From Escherichia coli (GTDB lineage Bacteria > Pseudomonadota > Gammaproteobacteria > Enterobacterales > Enterobacteriaceae), in the NCBI RefSeq assembly GCF_044324875.1, contig NZ_CP172185.1: a stretch of 64,000 bases of DNA. One strand, 5' to 3'. A model generated the notes under the pieces. It worked only from the letters and a program-made list of their open reading frames with translations. It did not search any database and was not told the origin of the DNA. Below are positions 43,442 through 57,020 of the stretch, in pieces. The position numbers and the translations under genes are program-made. The first letter of the stretch is position 1. The number at the start of each line of letters is the position of its first letter.

Positions 43442-43726
43442 ATGCCCTTAGCCGCCAAACTTACCGACAAAGGCACCCAGCACGACGGTTATTACGAGAC
43501 CGTCATCATCGCCGGGTCATCCACCGTTTTTATCGATGGTCTCCCCGCAGCCCGCCAGGGAGATCCGCTGACGCCGCATGCTAAACCGAAGCATCCCCCT
43601 CATCCCCGTAAAATCGCCAGAGGTTCTTCAACCGTCTTTATTGACGGTCTGCCCGCCGCCAGAAGCGGTGATGCTGTTGACTGCGGCGGCGTGGTTATCG
43701 GTGGCGGTACGGTAAATATAGGCTGA
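43442..43726 (+). CDS. PAAR-domain protein (type VI secretion spike tip)
   Basis: 94-aa ORF with two literal PAAR motifs in a duplicated segment (SSTVFIDGLPAARQGD / SSTVFIDGLPAARSGD); strong RBS aggagg. Confidence 0.8.
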   Translation: MPLAAKLTDKGTQHDGYYETVIIAGSSTVFIDGLPAARQGDPLTPHAKPKHPPHPRKIARGSSTVFIDGLPAARSGDAVDCGGVVIGGGTVNIG

Positions 43727-43744: not shown

Positions 43745-46150
43745 ATGTCCTTAAAAGGTCTTCACTTTACGCTGGAGGTTGACGGCCAGGAGCCGGACAC
43801 CTTTGCAGTGGTGCATTTCAGGTTAATCCAGAACCAGTCTTATCCGTTTGTGATGAGTGTGGATGTTGCCAGCGACTCTTTTATGCAGACGGCGGAGATG
43901 CTGCTGGAGAAGAAGGCGACGCTGACCATCTGGCAGGGCGTCATCCCGCTGCGTTATGTCACCGGCGTGGTGGCGGGTTTTGGCATGCAGGAGAACAATG
44001 GCTGGCAGATGCGTTACCACCTGCGTATCCAGCCGCCGTTATGGCGGTGCGGGCTGCGGCAGAACTTCCGTATCTTCCAGCAGCAGGATATCCGGACGAT
44101 ATCGGCCACGTTACTGAACGAGAACGGCGTCACGGAGTGGACGCCGCTGTTTTATGAGGACCATCCGGCGCGGGAGTTCTGTGTCCAGTACGGGGAGTCG
44201 GACCTGGCGTTTCTGTCCCGGCTGTGGGCGGAGGAGGGTCTTTTCTTCTTTGAGCGGTTTGCGGCGGACAGTCCGGAGCAGAAGCTGACGCTGTGCGACG
44301 ATGTGGCGGGGCTGTCACAGGCGGGGGAGTTTCCGTTTAACCCGGACACATCGGCAGGTGCGGAGACGGAGTGTGTCAGTATGTTCCGTTATGAGGCGCA
44401 TGTCCGCCCGTCATCGGTGCAGAGCCAGGATTACACCTTTAAGGTGCCGGACTGGCCGGGGATGTATGAGCAGCAGGGTGAGAACCTGAACGGACAGCTG
44501 GAGCAGTATGAGATATTTGATTATCCGGGAAGGTACAAGGATGAACAGCACGGCAAGGATTTCACGCTGTACCAGATGGAGAGCCTGCGCAGTGATGCGG
44601 AAAAGGCCACAGGGCAGAGTAATTCGCCGAAGCTGTGGCCGGGAACGCGGTTTATGCTGACGGGGCATCCGCAGAAGATGCTGAACCGTGAATGGCAGGT
44701 GGTACAGAGCATACTGTCAGGAAACCAGCCGCAGGCGCTGCACGGCAGCCAGGGAAAGGGAACCACGCTGGGCAATCAGTTAGAGGTGATACCGGCGGAC
44801 CGGACGTGGCGTCCACGGCTGCAAAACAAACCGAAGGTGGACGGGCCACAGAGCGCCATCGTCACCGGTCCTGCGGGAGAGGAAATCTTCTGCGATGAAC
44901 ATGGACGGGTACGGGTGAAGTTCCACTGGGACCGTTATCACGGGATGACGGAGGCGAGTTCATGCTGGGTGCGGGTATCGCAGGCGTGGGCGGGGCCGGG
45001 GTTCGGTAACCTGGCGATACCACGGGTGGGTCAGGAGGTGATAGTGGACTTCCTGAACGGCGACCCGGACCAGCCGATAATCATGGGGCGGACGTACCAT
45101 GAGGACAACCGTTCGCCGGGCGACCTGCCGGGAACGAAGACGCAGATGACCATCCGGTCAAAAACCTATAAAGGAAGCGGATTTAACGAGCTGCGGTTTG
45201 AAGACGCCACCAGTAATGAGCAGGTGTATATCCATGCCCAGAAGAACATGGATACGGAGGTGCTCAACGACCGGACAACGGATGTGAAACATGACCATAC
45301 GGAAACCATCGGGAACGACCAGAAGATAACGGTGGTGAAGGGGCAGACGGTTCAGGTCGGGACCAGAAAAGAAGGGGGCCACGACCAGAGTATCACGGTG
45401 GCGAACGACCGGTGCATCACGGTACGTAATGACCAGACGCTGCAGGTGACGAATGACCGGACGGTGAGCGTGAGTAATGATGACGGCCTGTACGTCAGAA
45501 ATGACCGTAAAGTGACGGTGGAAGGGAAGCAGGAGCATAAGACGACGGGGAACCATATCAGTCTGGTGGAGGGAAAGCACAGCCTGGTGGTGAAGGGGAA
45601 CCTGGCGAGGAAGGTGAGTGGCGCGCTGGGGATAAAGGTGGACGGGGATATCGTGCTGGAGAGCAGCAGCCGGATAAGCCTGAAGGTGAGTGGCTCGTTT
45701 GTGGTCATCCATTCAGGGGGCGTGGACATCGTCGGGCCGAAAATCAATCTCAATAGCGGCGGTAGTCCGGGGACGCCGGTGCCGGCGCTGCAACCGGCGG
45801 TGCTGAAGACACTGGGGGATGAGAAGAGTGGTGATGGCAGTGATTCCGGAGAAGAAAATGAAGACTCTGGAGGGAACTGCGTGACCGGAAGTGGTGGTGA
45901 TGATCGAGGTGACGATGAGGATGAACCTGAAAAATATACTCTCCAGTTCCATTTTACAGACGATGACGGGATACCGTATTCAGAAACCCGCTACATTGCC
46001 TTCTTTGAGGATGGCACGCAGACCCGCGGAGAAACGGATGAAGAGGGGTATACAGAGCGTTTTTTTGTATCTAGCAAACATGAAATTAAAGTGAAGTTGT
46101 TATTTGCGAATGATGATTTTCTCTCAATGGAAGGACACTATGGACGATAA
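43745..46150 (+). CDS. vgrG: type VI secretion spike protein VgrG with acidic C-terminal extension
   Basis: 801-aa ORF; gp27/gp5-like N-terminal region, repeat-rich beta-helix, then Asp/Glu-rich tail. Confidence 0.9.
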   Translation: MSLKGLHFTLEVDGQEPDTFAVVHFRLIQNQSYPFVMSVDVASDSFMQTAEMLLEKKATLTIWQGVIPLRYVTGVVAGFGMQENNGWQMRYHLRIQPPLWRCGLRQNFRIFQQQDIRTISATLLNENGVTEWTPLFYEDHPAREFCVQYGESDLAFLSRLWAEEGLFFFERFAADSPEQKLTLCDDVAGLSQAGEFPFNPDTSAGAETECVSMFRYEAHVRPSSVQSQDYTFKVPDWPGMYEQQGENLNGQLEQYEIFDYPGRYKDEQHGKDFTLYQMESLRSDAEKATGQSNSPKLWPGTRFMLTGHPQKMLNREWQVVQSILSGNQPQALHGSQGKGTTLGNQLEVIPADRTWRPRLQNKPKVDGPQSAIVTGPAGEEIFCDEHGRVRVKFHWDRYHGMTEASSCWVRVSQAWAGPGFGNLAIPRVGQEVIVDFLNGDPDQPIIMGRTYHEDNRSPGDLPGTKTQMTIRSKTYKGSGFNELRFEDATSNEQVYIHAQKNMDTEVLNDRTTDVKHDHTETIGNDQKITVVKGQTVQVGTRKEGGHDQSITVANDRCITVRNDQTLQVTNDRTVSVSNDDGLYVRNDRKVTVEGKQEHKTTGNHISLVEGKHSLVVKGNLARKVSGALGIKVDGDIVLESSSRISLKVSGSFVVIHSGGVDIVGPKINLNSGGSPGTPVPALQPAVLKTLGDEKSGDGSDSGEENEDSGGNCVTGSGGDDRGDDEDEPEKYTLQFHFTDDDGIPYSETRYIAFFEDGTQTRGETDEEGYTERFFVSSKHEIKVKLLFANDDFLSMEGHYGR

Positions 46151-46523
46151 TAATCAAACTTCTGGACAACCAAAGCCAGAGCCAGAAGAATGTGTGAAAG
46201 AGCAAAAAATAACTGATCATTTTAAAATAATGATTGATAAGGCTCGTAAGGCACAAAAGTTGGTTTTGATAAAAAGAGCAGATGATCTTTTGAGATGGGG
46301 AGCACAGGAGGAATATGATTTCAGTAAGATCTTTGGTGTTAAAGGAAATAAGGAGGTTAATATAAGAAAATATGGACATAATACAGGTAGGCGCATGAAT
46401 GCTAGATTTCTTATGATGGATGGTGTGAGAAGATTAATGATTATAGCTAATGATTTAACAATGAGCAGTTTTATAAATTATATGGATTTGCCCCTATATT
46501 TCCAGACATCTGTTATCACTTAA
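46140..46523 (+). pseudogene. AT-rich gene translationally coupled to vgrG (candidate T6SS cargo/adaptor), 3' end interrupted by IS2
   Basis: ATG at 46140 overlaps the vgrG stop; ORF runs into the IS2 terminal repeat at 46483; removing IS2 and one TSD copy restores a 137-codon ORF ending at 53243. Confidence 0.6.
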
Positions 46524-47059
46524 CCCATTACAAGCCCGCTGCCGCAGATATTCCCGTGGCGAGCGATAACCCAGCGCACTATGCGGATGCCATTCGTTAT
46601 AATGCTCGAACGCCTCTGCAAGGTTCTTTGCTGCCGTTAACCCGTCTGGTTTGGGCATGATACTGATGTAGTCACGCTTTATCGTTTTCACGAAGCTCTC
46701 TGCTATTCCGTTACTCTCCGGACTCCGCACCGCCGTGTTCTTCGGTTCAAGTCCCAACATCCGGGCGAACTGGCGTGTTTCATTAGCCCGGTAGCATGAA
46801 CCATTATCGTAACCGGCTCATTTAAACCGTCTGGTCTGTTTCCTCCGGCTCTACAAAAATAATGTCCATCATTTTTAATGGACACTATCGTATGAAACAC
46901 CGGACCTGGATCACTGAAGCTTTACGTCTTCACTTTGAAGAACATTTACCCCGGGTTGTGGCCGGGCGTCGCCTGGGTGTACCAAAATCAACAGTTTGTA
47001 GTATGTTCGTGCGCTTTCGGAGAGCTGGCCTTTCGTGGCTGCAAAATGGCATCTGAATC

Positions 47060-47160
47060 GATCGCAGTTTGGCATTCGAATCGATCATGATTTGGCATCC
47101 ATCTCCGATCACAGTTTGGCATCACAATCGATCACGATTTGGCATGCTTCCGATCATTGA
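47060..47160 (+). repeat. IS21-family subterminal multiple repeats (tttggcat motifs spaced about 20 bp apart)
   Basis: five or six copies of gatc...tttggcat upstream of istA; inverted copies (atgccaa) at the other end near 49640-49650. Confidence 0.6.
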
Positions 47161-47241
47161 TTGGCATCCTGCCAGTCACTCCGGGAATTAACTCTTTTCA
47201 CCACAGTCTCCATTGCCGTGTTTAAACCAGTGGAGACGTCA

Positions 47242-48807
47242 ATGTCCAGAAAGAGAAAATCCAGGAGCACTATGGAAACCTGTTTTAAGATCCTTCAGCT
47301 CAAGTTCGACAAGAAGCTGACTAACCGTTGTATCGGACTGACGTTACACATCAGCGCCTCAACCGTTTTTGAGGTTCTTGCCCGCTTCAAAGCCTCTTCT
47401 CTGTCATGGCCATTACCTGCTGATATATCCCATGACACGCTGGAGAAACTCATTTTTCCGCCCAAAGACACCTTTGCATCAGAGCTTGTAATGCCTGACA
47501 TGTTGTACTTCGATACGGAAATGAGAAAACCAGGTGTGACGCGGCAACTGTTGTGGATGGAATACAAGGCACAGGCGGGTAACAAAGCGATGGGATACTC
47601 GCACTTCTGCCGTTGCTACCGGGAGTGGAAAAAAACGCGACGTCTCTCCATGCGCCAGGAGCATCGTGCCGGCGAAAAGCTTTTTATCGACTTCTGTGGT
47701 CCTACGGTTCCTGTTATTAATCCGGACACCGGTGAGATACGCCGCGTGGCAATCTTCGTGGCCGTAATGGGGGCGTCCAACTATACCTACGTTGAAGCGT
47801 GCGAAGGTCAGGACATGATGTCATGGTTAAATGCCCACAGCCGTTGCCTGACCTTCCTGGGCGGCGTACCGAAGCTGCTCATCCCCGATAACCTCAGAAG
47901 CGCAGTGAAAAAGGCCGATCGATATGAGCCTGTCATCAACGACAGTTATCAGGCACTGGCTGAGCACTATGGCACGGTTATCATCCCGGCCCGACCACGC
48001 AAACCTAAAGATAAACCAAAAGCAGAAAACGGCGTCCTCATCGTTGAACGATGGCTTCTTGCCCGCATCCGTAATGAAACCTTCCACACGCTCAGGGCGC
48101 TGAATGCGCGCCTTAGGGAGTTACTGACAGACATGAATAACCGGCCAATGAAGGGGTACGGCAATCAAACCCGTGCAGAACGCTTCCGCATACTGGATGC
48201 GCCAGCACTCTCTCCGCTGCCTCTGGCACCTTATGAATACACGGAATACAAAGCTGTGAAGGTTGGCCCTGACTACCACGTTGAATATGCCCGTCACTGG
48301 TACTCCGTTCCACACGAACTGGTCGGTCAGCGTCTGTCACTGAAGGCGGGGCAGTCGGTGGTACAGCTCTGGCACAAGGGGCAGTGTGTGGCGCAACATC
48401 CGCGCAGCACACATGAATATAAACACACAACCAATCCGCTTCACATGCCAGAGCGCCACCGGCAGCACGGGACATGGACACCGGAACGCCTGATCGAGCA
48501 GGGAAAACGTACGGGCCCGTCCACAGGCCGGGTGGTTGAATCCATGCTGAAGGCAAAACCCCATCCGGAACTGGCTTATCGTGCAGTTCTGGGGCTGCTG
48601 GCACTTCAGAAAAAATACGGCCCGGAACGGCTGGAAAAGGCCTGTTACGTTGCCCTGCACTATAACGCCCCTGACAGACGCTTTATCGACAATCTGCTGC
48701 GTCACCATCGGGAGAACCTGGAGCTTCCATTATCCCGCCAGGGCGAACAACATCCGGCATATGCTTCAGAGCATGAAAACCTGCGTGGTCCGGGCTACTA
48801 CCACTGA
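47242..48807 (+). CDS. istA: IS21-family transposase IstA
   Basis: about 521 aa from MSRKRKS with N-terminal HTH and integrase-like core; ORF track begins at 47161. Confidence 0.85.
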   Translation: MSRKRKSRSTMETCFKILQLKFDKKLTNRCIGLTLHISASTVFEVLARFKASSLSWPLPADISHDTLEKLIFPPKDTFASELVMPDMLYFDTEMRKPGVTRQLLWMEYKAQAGNKAMGYSHFCRCYREWKKTRRLSMRQEHRAGEKLFIDFCGPTVPVINPDTGEIRRVAIFVAVMGASNYTYVEACEGQDMMSWLNAHSRCLTFLGGVPKLLIPDNLRSAVKKADRYEPVINDSYQALAEHYGTVIIPARPRKPKDKPKAENGVLIVERWLLARIRNETFHTLRALNARLRELLTDMNNRPMKGYGNQTRAERFRILDAPALSPLPLAPYEYTEYKAVKVGPDYHVEYARHWYSVPHELVGQRLSLKAGQSVVQLWHKGQCVAQHPRSTHEYKHTTNPLHMPERHRQHGTWTPERLIEQGKRTGPSTGRVVESMLKAKPHPELAYRAVLGLLALQKKYGPERLEKACYVALHYNAPDRRFIDNLLRHHRENLELPLSRQGEQHPAYASEHENLRGPGYYH

Positions 48808-48823
48808 CAGAAGGAACAACAGT

Positions 48824-49579
48824 ATGAGTGATAACCTGTTAAACAAACTGACCCAACTGAAACTCCCGGCGATGGCCGGGAGCCTGATACGGCAGCGGGA
48901 AACGCCTCAGACCTACGACGAACTGTCGTTCGAGGAAAGGCTGACGCTGCTGGTTGATGACGAGCTTCTGAGCAGGGAAAACAGCCGTGTGGCACGGTTG
49001 AGAAAAAATGCCGGCCTGAAATACCAGGCAACACCGGAAGGGCTGCGCTATCCGGCCTCAAGAGGTCTGCGGGCTGAACAGATGAGAGAACTGCTGAACG
49101 GCCACTACATAACCCACAGGAAAAACCTGCTGATAACCGGTCCGACAGGATGTGGCAAGAGCTGGATAGCCAATGCGCTGGGCGAACAGGCATGTCGACA
49201 GAAACACAGCGTCCGGTACTGTAGAACCGGGCGATTACTGGAACAACTGGCTCAGGGACGTGTTGATGGCAGCTGGCTGAAATATCTGAAACAGTTGCAA
49301 AAAATACAGGTTCTAATCCTGGACGATCTGGGGCTGGAACAGTTAAGTAACGCCCAGTGTAATGACCTTCTGGAGCTCATAGAGGATCGTTACGGACAAA
49401 GCAGCACGATAGTGGTAAGCCAGTTCCCGGTAGATAAATGGCATGGTCTGATGGAGAACCCAACAACAGCAGATGCCATCCTGGACAGACTGGTACATAA
49501 CTCACACCGAGTGGTCCTTCAGGGAGAGTCACTGAGGAAAAATCCCCCGGTAGTGGAAAGCAGCGAAAAAACGCGTTAA
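48824..49579 (+). CDS. istB: IS21-family ATP-binding helper IstB
   Basis: 252-aa ORF with Walker A GPTGCGKS and Walker B LILDDLG. Confidence 0.9.
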   Translation: MSDNLLNKLTQLKLPAMAGSLIRQRETPQTYDELSFEERLTLLVDDELLSRENSRVARLRKNAGLKYQATPEGLRYPASRGLRAEQMRELLNGHYITHRKNLLITGPTGCGKSWIANALGEQACRQKHSVRYCRTGRLLEQLAQGRVDGSWLKYLKQLQKIQVLILDDLGLEQLSNAQCNDLLELIEDRYGQSSTIVVSQFPVDKWHGLMENPTTADAILDRLVHNSHRVVLQGESLRKNPPVVESSEKTR

Positions 49580-50182
49580 AAAGCGGTAGAAAAAGTTAAG
49601 TTCCCGGTTGATCGAATGGATGCGAATCGCTGATCGGACTTCGATGCCAATCCGTGATCGAATAGAGCGGAATACGCAGTGGCCTTTGCCCGCAGGCATG
49701 TCGGAGCAGGAACTTGATGCCTGCCTTTACGGACAATTTTCCACGGTACCAGTCGTACGTCCTGAAAGCACCGTTATATCCGAAGCCCCCGTGGTAAAAA
49801 AACGTCCCCGGCGGCCCAACTTCCCTTATGAGTTTAAAATCGCCTTAGTGGAGCAGTCACTGCAGCCCGGAGCCTGTGTGGCGCAGATCGCCCGGGAAAA
49901 CGGAATCAACGATAACCTGCTCTTCAACTGGCGCCATCAATACCGGAAAGGTGGCCTGCTGCCTTCCGGAAAAAATATGCCGGCACTGCTTCCCGTGACG
50001 TTAACGCCGGAGCCGGATAATAAAATCCCGGCCCCCGCACAGGAACCAGAGCAGATAAATACACCGTCCGACAGTCTGTGTTGTGAGCTGGTTCTGCCGG
50101 CCGGAACTCTCAGGCTTAAAGGTAAACTGACGCCGGCGTTATTACAGACACTTATCCGCGAAATAAAAGGGAGCAGCCACTG

Positions 50183-50530
50183 ATGATATCTCTCCCTGCA
50201 GGTTCGCGTATCTGGCTGGTTGCAGGTATCACCGATATGCGAAATGGCTTTAACGGCCTGGCATCAAAAGTTCAGAACGTCCTGAAGGATGACCCGTTCT
50301 CCGGACACCTGTTCATCTTCCGCGGACGCCGGGGTGACCAGATAAAAGTGTTGTGGGCTGACAGTGACGGACTGTGCCTCTTCACCAAACGCCTGGAGCG
50401 GGGCCGCTTCGTCTGGCCAGTCACCCGTGACGGCAAGGTGCACCTTACTCCGGCTCAGTTATCCATGCTTCTTGAAGGTATCAACTGGAAGCACCCGAAA
50501 CGAACGGAACGCGCTGGAATCCGCATATAA
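50183..50530 (+). CDS. IS66-family TnpB (orf2)
   Basis: 115-aa ORF recognised as IS66 family Orf2. Confidence 0.85.
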   Translation: MISLPAGSRIWLVAGITDMRNGFNGLASKVQNVLKDDPFSGHLFIFRGRRGDQIKVLWADSDGLCLFTKRLERGRFVWPVTRDGKVHLTPAQLSMLLEGINWKHPKRTERAGIRI

Positions 50531-50549
50531 CCCGTTGTAAAGTGAGGAT

Positions 50550-52121
50550 ATGGACACCTCACTTGCTCATGAGAACGCCCGCCTGCGGGCACTGTTGCAG
50601 ACGCAACAGGACACCATCCGCCAGATGGCTGAATACAACCGCCTGCTCTCACAGCGGGTGGCGGCTTATGCTTCCGAAATCAACCGGCTGAAGGCGCTGG
50701 TTGCGAAACTGCAACGTATGCAGTTCGGTAAAAGCTCAGAAAAACTTCGTGCAAAAACCGAACGGCAGATACAGGAAGCACAGGAGCGAATCAGCGCACT
50801 TCAGGAAGAAATGGCGGAAACGCTGGGTGAGCAATATGACCCGGTACTGCCATCCGCCCTGCGCCAGTCTTCAGCCCGTAAACCGTTACCGGCCTCACTT
50901 CCCCGTGAAACCCGGGTTATCCGGCCGGAAGAGGAATGCTGTCCTGCCTGTGGTGGTGAACTCAGTTCTCTGGGATGTGATGTGTCAGAGCAACTGGAGC
51001 TTATCAGCAGCGCCTTTAAGGTTATCGAAACACAACGTCCGAAACAGGCCTGTTGCCGGTGCGACCATATCGTGCAGGCACCAGTACCTTCAAAACCCAT
51101 TGCACGCAGTTATGCCGGAGCGGGGCTTCTGGCCCATGTTGTCACCGGGAAATATGCAGACCATCTGCCGTTATACCGCCAGTCAGAAATATACCGTCGT
51201 CAGGGAGTGGAGCTGAGCCGTGCCACACTGGGGCGCTGGACAGGTGCTGTTGCTGAACTGCTGGAGCCGCTGTATGACGTCCTGCGCCAGTATGTGCTGA
51301 TGCCCGGTAAAGTCCATGCTGATGATATCCCCGTCCCGGTCCAGGAGCCGGGCAGCGGTAAAACCCGGACAGCCCGGCTGTGGGTCTACGTCCGTGATGA
51401 CCGTAACGCCGGTTCACAGATGCCCCCGGCGGTCTGGTTCGCGTACAGTCCGGACCGGAAAGGTATCCATCCACAAAATCACCTGGCCGGTTACAGCGGT
51501 GTGCTTCAGGCCGATGCTTACGGTGGTTACCGGGCGTTATACGAATCCGGCAGAATAACGGAAGCCGCGTGTATGGCTCATGCCCGGAGAAAAATCCACG
51601 ATGTGCATGCAAGAGCGCCCACCTACATCACCACGGAAGCCCTGCAGCGTATCGGTGAACTGTATGCCATCGAGGCAGAGGTCCGGGGCTGTTCAGCAGA
51701 ACAGCGTCTGGCGGCAAGAAAAGCCAGAGCCGCGCCACTGATGCAGTCACTGTATGACTGGATACAGCAACAGATGAAAACACTGTCGCGTCACTCAGAT
51801 ACGGCAAAAGCGTTCGCATACCTGCTGAAACAGTGGGATGCACTGAACGTGTACTGCAGTAATGGCTGGGTGGAAATCGACAACAACATCGCAGAGAACG
51901 CCTTACGGGGAGTGGCCGTAGGCCGGAAAAACTGGATGTTCGCGGGTTCCGACAGCGGTGGTGAACATGCGGCGGTGTTGTACTCGCTGATCGGCACATG
52001 CCGTCTGAACAATGTGGAGCCAGAAAAGTGGCTGCGTTACGTCATTGAACATATCCAGGACTGGCCGGCAAACCGGGTACGCGATCTGTTGCCCTGGAAA
52101 GTTGATCTGAGCTCTCAGTAA
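50550..52121 (+). CDS. IS66-family transposase TnpC (orf3)
   Basis: 523-aa ORF with leucine-zipper N-terminus, CxxC zinc motif and IS66 DDE core. Confidence 0.85.
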
Positions 52122-52151
52122 ATATCAATACGGTTCTGACGAGTCGCTTAC

Positions 52152-52750
52152 CCATTATCCGTCAGCCACTCCACTGGAGACGACGGAAGATCGTTGCCGA
52201 AGCGGCGTTCCACCGCTCCCAGCATGACGTCCTGTACTGTTTCACTGTTGAAGCCGCCGGTAGTGACCGCCCAGTGCAGTGCCTCACGATCACAGCAGTC
52301 CAGCGCGAACGTGACACGCAGTCTCTCTCCGTTATCACAGCAGAACTCGAACCCGTCAGAGCACCATCGCTGATTGCTTTCTTTCACGGCCACTCTGCCT
52401 GTATGTGCCCGTTTCGATGGCGGTACAGCAGGTTTTCGCTCAAGCAACAGCGCATTCTGGCGCATGATCCGGTAAACACGTTTGGCATTGATCGCAGGCA
52501 TACCATCAAGTTCTGCCTGTCTGCGAAGCAGCGCCCATACCCGACGATAACCATACGTTGGCAGCTCTCCGATAACATGGTGTATACGGAGAAGCACATC
52601 CGTATCATCAGTGTGACGACTGCGGCGGCCATCCATCCAGTCATCGGTTCGTCTGAGAATGACGTGCAACTGCGCACGCGACACCCGGAGACAACGGCTG
52701 ACTAAGCTTACTCCCCATCCCCGGGCAATAAGGGCGCGTGCGCTATCCAC
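52152..52750 (-). pseudogene. insD: IS2 insD, N-terminal two-thirds, truncated by the IS66-family insertion (C-terminal part at 46494-46808)
   Basis: translation recognised as IS2 InsD up to ...VEWLTDNG, where the IS66-family end begins. Confidence 0.85.
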
Positions 52751-53073
52751 TTTTTTGCCCGTCCATATTCAACGGCTTCTTTGAGGAGTTCATTTTCCAT
52801 CGTTTTCTTGCCGAGCAGGCGCTGGAGTTCTTTAATCTGCTTCATGGCGGCAGCAAGTTCAGAGGCAGGAACAACCTGTTCTCCGGCGGCGACAGCAGTA
52901 AGACTTCCTTCCTGGTATTGCTTACGCCAGAGAAATAACTGGCTGGCTGCTACACCATGTTGCCGGGCAACGAGGGAGACCGTCATCCCCGGTTCAAAGC
53001 TCTGCTGAACAATTGCGATCTTTTCCTGTGTGGTACGCCGTCTGCGTTTCTCCGGCCCTAAGACATCAATCAT
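52708..53073 (-). CDS. insC: IS2 InsC (orfA)
   Basis: 121-aa ORF from [18 protein letters not shown] recognised as IS2 InsC. Confidence 0.9.
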
Positions 53074-53310
53074 CTGTTCTCCAATGACTAGTCTAAAAAC
53101 TAGTATTAAGACTATCACTTATTTAAGTGATACTGGTTGTCTGGAGATTCAGGGGGCCAGTCTATTATACAGGTTGTAATGAATTTGCAGCATTCGTCAG
53201 CCCAAGTAAGGATATGCCCTATATAATTAACATAGGAATTTGAGTATAGAGATGGCAAAAAAAATCCAGTAACGGGAAAGGATTCTCATGTTGCTACTTT
53301 ATGTCATGAA

Positions 53311-53613
53311 ATGTCTCATATTCAGTGGTATTATGGGGATAATAAAAAAGGTGGTATGTGGTCACAGGATTATACAACTACTGATAAATATTCAACGTGC
53401 AAAGAGGATGAAGTTTCATATGACGAACATATCCGTATTGCAACTAAACTGATCTCTAAACAAAAAGATCAAATATTCGAGAATGCATATAACATAGAAA
53501 GATATTTTGAAATAAGATTAATTGAAAGTGAGATAGACTCGATTAATGATGAAATATTAAGCAATTCAGTTAAGAAAAAAATAGCGGAATTAGAAAAAGC
53601 ACTTCTCCATTAA
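53311..53613 (+). CDS. hypothetical protein (100 aa), AT-rich
   Basis: ORF in the AT-rich segment between IS2 and the H-repeat fragment. Confidence 0.3.
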   Translation: MSHIQWYYGDNKKGGMWSQDYTTTDKYSTCKEDEVSYDEHIRIATKLISKQKDQIFENAYNIERYFEIRLIESEIDSINDEILSNSVKKKIAELEKALLH

Positions 53614-53636
53614 CTAATAAGTCGAGAAATATATTA

Positions 53637-53900
53637 ATGCTGCAAGCTATAAAAAAAATCATAATAATGACAATCGTAAATATTATATTTTTCTATTCCT
53701 TTCAATCGACTGCGGATGAAATGGTTTTAATAAAAAAATACGGGTTTGGGCTTGAGAGAGATATCAAAGGAAGGCCATTAATTTATCCTATCGAAAATTA
53801 TGATGAGTGTAAGAAAAAATGCAATCATATGAATTATATAGCGGATGTCAATGCTCAATTAGCTATGAGTAAAAAAATAACAGGATTTTTGCTAACATAA
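53637..53900 (+). CDS. hypothetical small exported protein (87 aa), AT-rich
   Basis: N-terminal hydrophobic signal-like segment ending STA, cysteines in the mature part. Confidence 0.35.
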   Translation: MLQAIKKIIIMTIVNIIFFYSFQSTADEMVLIKKYGFGLERDIKGRPLIYPIENYDECKKKCNHMNYIADVNAQLAMSKKITGFLLT

Positions 53901-53953
53901 CCTTTACTAACAATAGCTCTACCACGTATTTTTTTTCTAAATATTACCTACCT

Positions 53954-54457
53954 ATGAAAGTAAAAGATGGAAAAGGAGATGAATATGATGCGATATGCAA
54001 AAAACCATTCAGAATCAACTCTGGGAATATCACGTTGGACTACTTAGGTGGTTCATGTCCTTTTGAAATTAATACGAATCCTGAACGGTGGAATACTATT
54101 AAACCAGGTCGTAGTTTTTTGTTGAGTATAACCTTAAATGATATGTATGCCTTTATACCAGGAGATAATTATTATTTTATAAAATCATCTGGCTATAAAT
54201 TTGTTAATGACAAGTGGTTTACACTCAAATCAATCAATAATATTTTTCTTTATTTTTTAAATTTAAAAATTAATTGTGCTGATGATTTTTTTGATATTAA
54301 TAATTTTACTACATGTGATAATTTGTTATTAGATGAAAAAAAACACTTTTTTATTAATCAGTTATGGGCAATTGAGGATGAAAAAAATTCTATTTACGTC
54401 ACCCCTGATGAAATTTCTATAAGTATAGACGGCGATAACTTAAAGTTGCCATATTAG
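53954..54457 (+). CDS. hypothetical protein (167 aa), AT-rich
   Basis: ORF ending immediately before the H-repeat fragment. Confidence 0.35.
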   Translation: MKVKDGKGDEYDAICKKPFRINSGNITLDYLGGSCPFEINTNPERWNTIKPGRSFLLSITLNDMYAFIPGDNYYFIKSSGYKFVNDKWFTLKSINNIFLYFLNLKINCADDFFDINNFTTCDNLLLDEKKHFFINQLWAIEDEKNSIYVTPDEISISIDGDNLKLPY

Positions 54458-54476
54458 GAATCTGTGAAAGAACAAG

Positions 54477-54965
54477 GTGCGCCGCTTTTTTGTACTAAAT
54501 AATTCGCATTTTAGTCACGGCAGAGAAGAAATCCATCTTCATATTGTTTGCGATGTCCCTGATGAACTTATTGATTTCACGTTTGAATGGAAAGGTCAGA
54601 AGAAATTATGCGTGGCAGTCTCCTTTTGGTCAATAATAGCAGAACAAAAGAAAGAGCCAGAAATGACGGTCAGATATTATATCAGTTCTGCTGATTTAAC
54701 CGCAAAAAAGTTCGCCACAGCGATACGAAATCACTGGCACGTGGAGAATAAGCTGCACTGGCGTCTGGACGTGGTAATGAACGAAGACGACTGCAAAATA
54801 AGAAGAGGAAACGCCGCAGAATTATTTTCAGGGATACGGCACATCGCTATTAATATTTTAACGAATGATAAGGTATTCAAGGCAGGGTTAAGACGCAAGA
54901 TGCGAAAAGCAGCTATGGACAGAGACTACCTCGCGTCAGTCCTTGCGGGGAGCGGGCTTTCGTAA
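54477..54965 (+). pseudogene. H-repeat-associated (ISAs1-family) transposase, C-terminal fragment, 5'-truncated
   Basis: ...[46 protein letters not shown]... matches the C-terminus of H-rpt proteins such as YdcC; N-terminal part absent. Confidence 0.75.
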
Positions 54966-55073
54966 TCTTGCCCTGGCGATCGAATAGCGCAGATGACGGT
55001 GCTCTAAATTTGAATCTAATAAGCCGGTGTTATTTTTCATCCACTATTAAAATCTTGACACAACGAGGCAACA

Positions 55074-55535
55074 ATGAAAAAAAGCAAAAAAATTAAAACA
55101 ATGAACCATCAAAATAATAGCGGGATACAAAATCAACCAGACTATCACATCGAAATAGAAAGAAAAAATATGGTAAGATTGCTTGATGAACGTATTGATA
55201 AAGTTTACGGTTCATTGCTAGGACCAATGAAAAAGAAAAATATAGATAAAATACGTCATTTTACACTTGATGTAATGGTGTTTATTCTTGACACGAACCC
55301 TCGTGTTTGTAATAAATTATCCAGGGAAATAATATCTTTAGCGCAAAATACCTTCATTGAAAAAAACGTTAATTTTTCAACTTTTAATAATGAACAGCAT
55401 AGAATAAGGGAGTATATGAATGAAGTGGTGGAATACGATGGTTTACATGGGATAACCCCGAGATATCTTTTGTTCGTGCATCTTTTGGCCTTTTTGTCAA
55501 AATGGAAACAAAAGGTGATCATGAACATACACTAA
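55074..55535 (+). CDS. hypothetical protein (153 aa), very AT-rich
   Basis: ORF with no recognisable motif. Confidence 0.3.
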   Translation: MKKSKKIKTMNHQNNSGIQNQPDYHIEIERKNMVRLLDERIDKVYGSLLGPMKKKNIDKIRHFTLDVMVFILDTNPRVCNKLSREIISLAQNTFIEKNVNFSTFNNEQHRIREYMNEVVEYDGLHGITPRYLLFVHLLAFLSKWKQKVIMNIH

Positions 55536-55992
55536 GTGACACATTTCTTCAGATTGTTGAGTGTGTTAATTTAAATATAGGACTTATTGCAAAAGATGAA
55601 CTGGTAAAAATCATCAATAAACACTTTATGTAAAAATATACTTCTGTATGAAGTTATAATAATACAGTGAAAATCATCAAATTATTAATTAATGATGCTC
55701 TTTGTTATTATTTACTTTTTACAATTGAATCAGGGGTTTTATTTTCTGTAGTAAAGTTGTATTTTTGCTAAAGGTGATAAAGTACAGGTGTTTATATTAA
55801 ATTAGAACTCCCCTTAATTATCATAAATACAAAGAGGTGAAAACATGCGGGGGTGTTTTCGTTAAATAATACCATGGTGAATTAATAACATGCTATCAGT
55901 GATATACATATTTTCTCTAACAAAGTTTTAGTAAAATTACGCGTAGTAAGAAGATTCCGCCAAAGATTCCATATAATAATATTAAGGTTGTT

Positions 55993-56628
55993 ATGAATAA
56001 AGGTAATAGATTACAACAGTTAGAAGATGCGTGTCGTGATATTATTAAAATTAACATGTGGTATGAACTCCCCGATTATGTATTTTTTTCAATATCTGAC
56101 ACCATCGATGGGACGAGTGATGAATTCGCAATAAATGTGTATAAAAATATCGATAAAAGTCTTCTTGAAATATTATTGCATCCATCTGTTTTACTGTCAG
56201 TTGTTGAGTCCTTACAAAGTAATACTATAGCTGAGTATATCGTGAAATTGTCTGAAATAGAGATGAATTATGACGACTTGCTAATATCGGATGTTAAATC
56301 ATGTCTTTTTATCAACTATGGATTCAATAACAGTGAATCGGTTGCGCTATTTAATAAGATTTACCGCGAATTAAAAGATATTGTAAAATCATCAAGAGTA
56401 CATATAGATCATGAGAAAGATATTTTTGATGGCCTTAATCAAATCTTGGCTTTTTCCGATAATAATAAACATGAGTATTTTTTATATATAAAGGCATATT
56501 GGCTCAGTTTATACTTTTGTGAAATTTCACAGAACGTGAGAGAAAGAGATAAGTTGTCATTTTATTATAATGAATTTTCTGTCCGATTTCCTAATGTTGT
56601 CCTATATCCGTCATGCTACAAATTGTAA
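55993..56628 (+). CDS. hypothetical protein (211 aa), very AT-rich
   Basis: ORF with no recognisable motif. Confidence 0.35.
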   Translation: MNKGNRLQQLEDACRDIIKINMWYELPDYVFFSISDTIDGTSDEFAINVYKNIDKSLLEILLHPSVLLSVVESLQSNTIAEYIVKLSEIEMNYDDLLISDVKSCLFINYGFNNSESVALFNKIYRELKDIVKSSRVHIDHEKDIFDGLNQILAFSDNNKHEYFLYIKAYWLSLYFCEISQNVRERDKLSFYYNEFSVRFPNVVLYPSCYKL

Positions 56629-57020
56629 GGCTTGGCACCTGAAATTCATTGTTAATTCGAGACGCTTGATTGTCCACTATATCAAAACAGTCATACCTCG
56701 GAATTTTCTCGCATTAGTCCATACGGTATTCAATATTCGCAACTGTGCCCTGAAATAAAAAACTGCAAAACTGCTTTTTCTTGACCTGTCCCAATCACGC
56801 AAGACTACTTTTAGTAGAGACCTCCAGCTATGTCGATTTTAGTGCCGCCCGCGCATTTTATACAAAACAGGGCTTTATTAATGAAGCTATAATACGCAAT
56901 TACTATGATGTTGGTGAGGATAAATTAATCTTCACTAAAAATATGCAATCGTGAGATAAAATATGCTTTTAACTCATATTGAAACATTGCTTAAGCAACT
57001 TGGTTGCTGCATATGATTCT

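Follow-up and report, generated by a model that had tools for sequence, protein, structure and literature searches.

A C-terminal domain of the transthyretin-like (TTR) family is present in a VgrG (TssI) protein encoded in a 64,000-nucleotide stretch of an Escherichia coli genome (contig NZ_CP172185.1 of assembly GCF_044324875.1; hereafter, the window). This domain (residues 728-801) is likely to be an adaptor that is held on an acidic tether of about 54 residues at the tip of the gp5-type beta-helix of a type VI secretion system (T6SS) spike and docks a cargo effector, the M35 peptidase encoded immediately downstream. The assignment of residues 728-801 to the C-terminal TTR family is supported by sequence, fold and position, and the role of an effector-specific adaptor is supported by the recurrence of the same trio, TTR, M35 peptidase and immunity-like protein, behind two types of VgrG needles. 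The relevant features of the gene are:

43745..46150, + strand: vgrG (tssI), an intact open reading frame (ORF) of 801 aa that matches TIGR03361 (E 1.7e-179) and Pfam Phage_GPD, Phage_base_V and Gp5_trimer_C

45773..45934, + strand: acidic linker, VgrG residues 677-730, TPVPALQPAVLKTLGDEKSG...DDEDEPEK, rich in Gly, Ser, Asp and Glu, presumed to be a disordered tether

45926..46108, + strand: TTR-like beta-sandwich core, VgrG residues 728-788

46109..46147, + strand: variable C-terminal VgrG tail, residues 789-801, with a predicted local distance difference test score (pLDDT) below 50 in the fused model discussed below

The TIGR03361 (TssI/VgrG) model covers residues 8-519 of the protein, and the Pfam matches comprise Phage_GPD, Phage_base_V and two stretches of Gp5_trimer_C, the last of which ends at residue 622. 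The peptide NLNSGGSPG (residues 668-676) marks the end of the beta-helix and is followed by the 54-residue linker, which contains 16 Asp and Glu, 4 Lys and Arg, and 17 Gly, Ser and Asn residues; judging from this composition, the linker is probably disordered. The beta module proper extends from Y731 to R801 (nucleotides 45935-46147), with the stop codon (46148-46150) directly after the TTR. Searches of residues 680-801 gave no Pfam or NCBIfam match, and scans of the tail remained empty even at E <= 10. A reading of the window from its sequence only (hereafter, the sequence-only reading) had proposed an acidic linker and a beta-rich module past the beta-helix, and the peptides it quoted are indeed found in the frame of the ORF at 43745..46150 (+); the module is, however, about 70 residues long rather than 60, and the proposed start of the feature at 45700 still lies within the last turns of the beta-helix. 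That reading would have been refuted had the tail been a conserved constituent of all canonical VgrGs, and this is not so: the VgrG1 chains of Pseudomonas aeruginosa (643-651 aa) align only to residues ~39-535 and lack the extension, and the DNA of the module is present in only 659 of the 5426 complete E. coli genomes. More generally, the alignment of solved VgrG structures to the window protein is limited to residues ~39-535, except for an Rhs-linked VgrG that reaches residue 674. The protein differs by 8 substitutions from that of E. coli 042 (WP_000053613; 793/801 identical residues, 99%). A compensated frameshift behind the substitutions clustered at residues 66-69, the one cluster checked, was considered and rejected, the cluster being a shared polymorphism.

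The family to which the module belongs became apparent in an exhaustive hidden Markov model (HMM) search of 1.84 billion representative proteins, which yielded 158 matches at E <= 0.001; it was required because word-indexed searching for proteins similar to the 75-aa module had yielded 16 short fragments only. Matches in multiple stretches (P0060, P0070, P0147 and others) look on inspection like repeat proteins of the PD40/TolB beta-propeller kind that share the pattern DG..Y....DG and were discarded as non-homologous. In the genuine matches, the module ends ~0-20 residues before the C-terminus, and every match with a recognisable core is a VgrG, in some cases with two modules in tandem. When the profile of an alignment of 53 sequences of the domain (alignment A6) was run against all PDB sequences, only two significant matches were obtained, namely the TTR domain of VgrG1 of enteroaggregative E. 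coli (EAEC) (6SJL residues 781-830, E 8.9e-10) and the TTR at the N-terminal end of a C-terminal fragment of P. aeruginosa VgrG2b (6H56 residues 11-64, E 2.1e-9). Three residues of the TTR core, T37, D38 and G41, are invariant in the 53-sequence alignment. The fold of the module is a small transthyretin/prealbumin-like beta-sandwich, and its location, at residues 728-801 of an 801-aa TssI past the beta-helical needle, is C-terminal. None of the 53 family members matches Pfam at E <= 0.001; thus, the TTR domain has no Pfam model even though it is widespread.

Several variations on this architecture were observed. Tandem TTR modules are found in the VgrGs designated L006 (493-6693), P0022, P0027/L018, P0037 and P0157. 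Downstream of the L006 gene, two further genes encode candidate effectors (303 and 286 aa) and both have small genes after them, a layout that raises the idea of one TTR per cargo effector. A 93-aa E. coli protein (P0011, from a 77-kb contig) consists of the first ~23 VgrG residues (MSLKGLRFTLEVDGQEPDTFAVV) fused straight to the TTR module; apparently it is what an internal deletion at the same locus left behind.

The TTR domains of VgrGs carry effector binding and specificity, as reported for VgrG1 with Tle1, VgrG4b with PldA and VgrG5 with PldB, domain swaps included (PMC7043769, PMC10715212, PMC6899460). The TTR of EAEC VgrG1 resides on a flexible linker that is invisible in cryo-electron microscopy, binds Tle1 through fold complementation with the N-terminal strand of that effector and is dispensable for PAAR binding (PMC10715212), whereas swaps between VgrG4b and VgrG5 exchange effector specificity (PMC7043769). 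In VgrG2b, the TTR is fused to a metallopeptidase whose toxicity is exerted in the periplasm, where an immunity protein neutralises it (PMC6899460). The window VgrG is distinct from each of these proteins. In EAEC VgrG1 (the Tle1-loading spike; PDB 6SJL/6SK0), the TTR is preceded by a DUF2345 extension of the needle and the cargo is the Tle1 phospholipase, whereas in the window a gp5-repeat needle is followed by the strongly acidic, low-complexity linker of 54 residues, and the cargo is an M35 peptidase whose gene overlaps the vgrG stop. As in P. aeruginosa VgrG2b (needle-DUF2345-TTR-metallopeptidase; PDB 6H56), a homologous TTR is located just before a zinc metallopeptidase; unlike in VgrG2b, a true evolved VgrG with a fused peptidase, the window peptidase is a separate ORF and, by sequence and fold, an aspzincin of the M35 family with no match to the 6H56 catalytic domain. 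As far as can be judged from the published descriptions, VgrG4b-PldA and VgrG5-PldB of P. aeruginosa are similar in that a C-terminal TTR picks the downstream effector (PMC7043769, PMC6684961), although in these the cargo is a phospholipase D and the needle is of a different type. The E. coli PAR locus, also compared by description, similarly encodes an immunity protein and a T6SS-delivered peptidase that its authors call M35 and equate with the VgrG2b toxin domain (PMC10673891); however, the adaptor there is a stand-alone DUF2345 protein, whereas the window locus lacks DUF2345 and its adaptor candidate is the TTR fused to VgrG.

The downstream neighbour is, judging by its sequence, a genuine M35/aspzincin peptidase. 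In E. coli 042, the gene after vgrG is annotated as 'peptidase M35' (263 aa, WP_000342577). The HExxH motif is invariant among the homologues, in the context of the M35 fold; Pfam Aspzincin_M35 is detected in 5/5 tested members at E <= 0.1; and the profile matches AsaP1 (E 1.4e-7) and GfMEP, the Grifola peptidyl-Lys peptidase (E 4.4e-6). An aspartate (D183 in the 042 protein), ~20 residues past HExxH in a GGMxxxD context and a candidate for the third zinc ligand, is invariant as well, whereas the canonical GTxDxxYG-like motif is not conserved. Homology between this M35 cargo and the VgrG2b peptidase (the catalytic domain of 6H56) was sought, with no match. The M35 proteins begin with ~17 polar residues that vary among them; between these and the first helix lies a semi-conserved segment, C-[VI]-x-x-x-x-[IV]-T-[DN]-x-F, of strand-like character. 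By analogy with the Tle1 strand, we infer that this segment could be a docking strand for the TTR.

An M35 peptidase gene followed by a gene for a protein with a signal peptide is found downstream of vgrG in 042 and in 10 other loci. The latter gene encodes a conserved DYLGG-type motif, is homologous to WP_001544554 of 042, and its homologues come after every M35 gene examined; the slot right after an effector gene is the usual position of an immunity protein. In extraintestinal pathogenic E. coli, a PAAR/VgrG effector locus that appears to be of the same kind encodes an M35-like protein, and this protein is toxic to E. coli only if exported to the periplasm (PMC7904677).

The vgrG and M35 genes are tightly linked. 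In the window, the M35 gene is a separate ORF in another frame than vgrG; as in 042, its ATG (46140) lies 11 nt from the vgrG end, and a Shine-Dalgarno sequence, GAAGGA, precedes it at 46130-46135, so that the last seven vgrG codons (MEGHYGR) serve as the ribosome-binding site and start of the M35 gene. Given that both signals lie within the vgrG tail, coupled synthesis of VgrG and M35 would be favoured, and the apparent conservation of the extreme VgrG tail may reflect a nucleotide-level constraint for translational coupling. An overlap of 8-14 nt is shared by the E. coli DUF2345-type locus and the seven acidic-linker (gp5-type) loci with both genes mapped, and in Franconibacter the M35 ATG directly follows the vgrG stop. 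The locus designated L013 shows a comparable overlap, with a vgrG tail ending in GGVHE that holds the M35 ATG.

The distribution of the trio, which recurs in six enterobacterial genera, bears on specificity. In E. coli (three variants), Escherichia sp., Salmonella, Buttiauxella and Trabulsiella, VgrGs with a gp5 needle and an acidic linker carry this TTR subfamily and precede genes for an M35-like peptidase and a homologous immunity-like protein. In Franconibacter and in one E. coli locus, the trio comes with a T6SS_Vgr/DUF2345 needle and a short non-acidic linker; the E. coli locus is flanked by genes for a ClpB/ClpV-like AAA+ ATPase and an IcmF-family (TssM-like) protein. More distant TTR-bearing VgrGs precede other effectors, namely Ntox44, Tae4 and proteins without a Pfam or M35 match. 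Taken together, these arrangements indicate that the TTR travels with the effector class and not with the needle. Among the three E. coli variants, the VgrG bodies are 90-99% identical and the TTR cores 88-95%, but the last 33 residues (769-801) are only 21-50% identical, and each variant precedes its own M35 variant and immunity gene. A scan of contigs with back-translated patterns, which were too strict, recovered 3 loci only.

In two T6SS-1 clusters (L003 8028-12082 and L004 9292-12156), the VgrG-TTR-M35-immunity arrangement is followed by a VgrG C-terminal fragment, a DUF4123 gene, a DUF3304 gene (L003) and a Tle1-like phospholipase gene, which indicates that effector cassettes were inserted one after another downstream of vgrG.

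The linker shows a different mode of conservation. Its length (51-62 aa) and acidic, Gly/Ser-rich composition are maintained in six full-length gp5-needle loci (E. coli, Salmonella, Buttiauxella, Trabulsiella guamensis), and T. odontotermitis shows a similar one, but the linker sequence is not conserved, with 49-79% identity even within E. coli; the acidic linker is absent from the DUF2345-type VgrGs that bear the same TTR. The retention of length and composition without retention of sequence suggests that the linker is selected as a flexible polyanionic tether.

These observations fit the suggestion of the sequence-only reading that the C-terminal module resembles an adaptor or a cargo-binding part and may determine the choice of effector, a suggestion now supported by the TTR homology, in profile and fold, and by the constant M35 synteny despite the differing needles. 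The accompanying label of an 'evolved VgrG' is incorrect given that no toxin domain is fused: with the peptidase encoded by a separate ORF, the protein is a VgrG of the cargo type that has an internal adaptor. The VgrG trimer has three TTRs, and, by analogy with EAEC VgrG1-Tle1, each of them would bind a single M35 effector. The long linker could allow the TTR-effector unit to sit beside the needle, so that the blunt tip stays available to PAAR. On firing, by whichever T6SS would use this spike, the M35/aspzincin zinc peptidase would be delivered and act in the periplasm of the target cell, and the periplasmic immunity protein encoded next would shield the producer.

Several results weigh against the docking of M35 by the TTR, or against the TTR assignment itself. 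With respect to the assignment, a narrow profile of the 8-sequence subfamily matched 6SJL with an E of just 0.13, and a Foldseek comparison to the PDB gave nothing significant for this generic small beta-sandwich, with 6SJL at rank 13 (E 0.45). With respect to docking, co-folding of the tail with the downstream protein, which the sequence-only reading had put forward as a check, was carried out with AlphaFold2 on a fused chain of the TTR, a Gly-Ser linker and M35 (8 paired plus 55 unpaired alignment rows); both domains folded confidently but no confident interface was obtained. VgrG residues 789-801 and M35 residues 1-24 had pLDDT <50 and no strand complementation was predicted, although this is a weak test given that the output came without predicted aligned error or contacts. 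Spearman covariation between TTR segments and M35 over 8 locus pairs, which is confounded by phylogeny, gave no decision either way. Furthermore, the synteny on its own would also be compatible with loading via PAAR or the needle, and other routes for a peptidase cargo exist, as illustrated by the E. coli PAR system, in which VgrG is linked through a stand-alone DUF2345 protein to a peptidase of the VgrG2b type labelled M35 by the authors (PMC10673891).

Two alternative explanations of the module itself were considered. The linker and TTR could be the leftover of a once-fused VgrG-TTR-peptidase that has no docking role after fission, with M35 loaded via PAAR, the needle surface or Hcp. VgrG2b does combine the needle, a TTR homologous to the window module and a metallopeptidase in one chain (PMC6899460), in one reported P. 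aeruginosa strain VgrG2b is truncated directly behind the TTR (PMC6899460), and an M35 start inside the vgrG stop region is the geometry expected from fission. Nevertheless, we deem this scenario improbable: the M35 proteins belong to the aspzincin family and do not match the 6H56 peptidase domain, and the strong conservation of the TTR core (T37, D38 and G41 invariant in the 53 sequences) across genera and two needle types, always with M35 downstream, is unexpected of a functionless remnant. Even less probable, to the point that we give it hardly any weight, is the possibility that the module is an Ig-like domain for target recognition or envelope binding (to carbohydrate or peptidoglycan) that aids the spike or the peptidase in the prey periplasm and takes no part in cargo loading. 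The only significant relatives with structures are VgrG TTRs with demonstrated effector binding, the domain is confined to VgrG C-termini, and the class of the downstream effector varies among the TTR-bearing loci examined, all of which argues against such a role. An adaptor that docks the downstream effector remains the reading we prefer. A stronger version of it, which we consider rather unlikely, is that the gp5-needle VgrGs embody a distinct loading solution, in which a polyanionic tether of 51-62 residues replaces the DUF2345 extension, and that the N-terminal half of the TTR is constant while its C-terminal strands and tail recombine with the M35 effector-immunity cassette.

The state of the locus in this particular genome is a separate matter, for which the following neighbouring features are relevant:

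43442..43726, + strand: gene for the PAAR spike-tip protein, 94 aa, matching NF033420 (T6SS_PAAR_dom) over the full length (E 1e-46)

46140..46482, + strand: 5' fragment of the M35/aspzincin effector gene, identical to the 5' part of the 042 'peptidase M35' gene; homology ends at 46482

46483..53163, no strand assigned: composite insertion sequence (IS), an IS2 with nested IS21-family and IS66-family elements, which splits the M35 gene

53164..53613, + strand: 3' fragment of the M35 effector gene, by alignment to the locus L001, with a 5-bp deletion after 53236 relative to 042

53637..54457, + strand: immunity-like gene (signal peptide, DYLGG motif), with a 1-bp deletion after 53870 that causes a frameshift relative to 042

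The PAAR gene is located upstream of vgrG, at a distance of 18 nt. Starting at yncE/ansP/yncG and continuing past PAAR and across vgrG, the window and E. coli 042 are colinear; colinearity is lost at 46482 and regained at 53164, and the flanks of the locus, yncE-ansP-yncG and yddH-nhoA, are as in 042. The intervening 6.7-kb insertion has ends annotated as IS2 (IS3 family) and TTATA repeats at 46478-46482 and 53164-53168, and contains istA/istB-like ORFs of the IS21 family (47161-49579) and IS66-family ORFs (49608-52121); the M35-IS2 junction was found in no complete E. coli genome of the collection. The reconstructed M35 frame fails after PYIINIG. Both the effector and the immunity genes of this genome are pseudogenes, whereas vgrG and PAAR retain their full length. 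No T6SS core genes were seen adjoining the locus. With its M35 gene split by IS2 and carrying a 5-bp deletion, and with the immunity gene frameshifted, the TTR adaptor is a cargo-less relic here, and the locus is a decayed orphan T6SS island, an ordinary result as far as this genome is concerned.

It could be argued from this decay that the whole locus is inert in this genome, without any current function, and that the vgrG ORF looks intact by chance in a decaying T6SS island. The disruption of the effector gene by the 6.7-kb composite IS and the 5-bp deletion, the frameshift in the immunity gene and the lack of T6SS core genes beside the locus speak for this view; the full-length vgrG and PAAR genes, with only 8 substitutions in VgrG compared to the 042 protein, speak against it, as does the presence of an identical VgrG in assemblies with an intact M35 gene (L016). 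On balance, we regard the chances as about even. The question concerns the state of the window copy and not the identity of the module, so it does not compete with the TTR assignment.

An independent case of decay at the same junction was observed in E. coli 2018-05-2CC (L004 6181-7362), where an IS600 within the TTR-coding region (after ...GYTEIF) separates vgrG from M35. In the window, a region of low GC content (53000-57000; 29-36% compared to ~50% around it) encompasses the 3' part of the effector gene, the immunity gene, an ISAs1 transposase fragment (54477-54965) and hypothetical ORFs at 55074-55535 and 55993-56628; the same gene set is annotated in E. coli 042. These features suggest a horizontally acquired cassette.

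A search of the literature found no paper on the TTR domain of the orphan PAAR-VgrG-M35 locus. The M35 effector itself has already been noted (PMC7904677), and the module described here would, by analogy, join the known TTR adaptors of the VgrG1, VgrG4b and VgrG5 type. Three points stand out: a mosaic boundary runs through the TTR, the tether is acidic, and a domain model is lacking. The VgrG TTR tails go unannotated because neither Pfam nor NCBIfam has a model for them, and the 53-sequence alignment could seed one. TTR adaptors are one of the few understood means by which cargo effectors are matched to the T6SS spike, and this locus adds to them a cargo class, the M35 peptidases, and an acidic low-complexity linker on a gp5-type needle. 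If the C-terminal half of the TTR indeed recombines, the specificity determinant would map to ~30 residues (769-801), and if the tether is a distinct design, its acidic nature may, for example, keep the cargo off the spike or tip, or mask the peptidase. The occurrence of the TTR-M35-immunity cassette on two needle types makes it a natural system for mapping specificity and for spike engineering.

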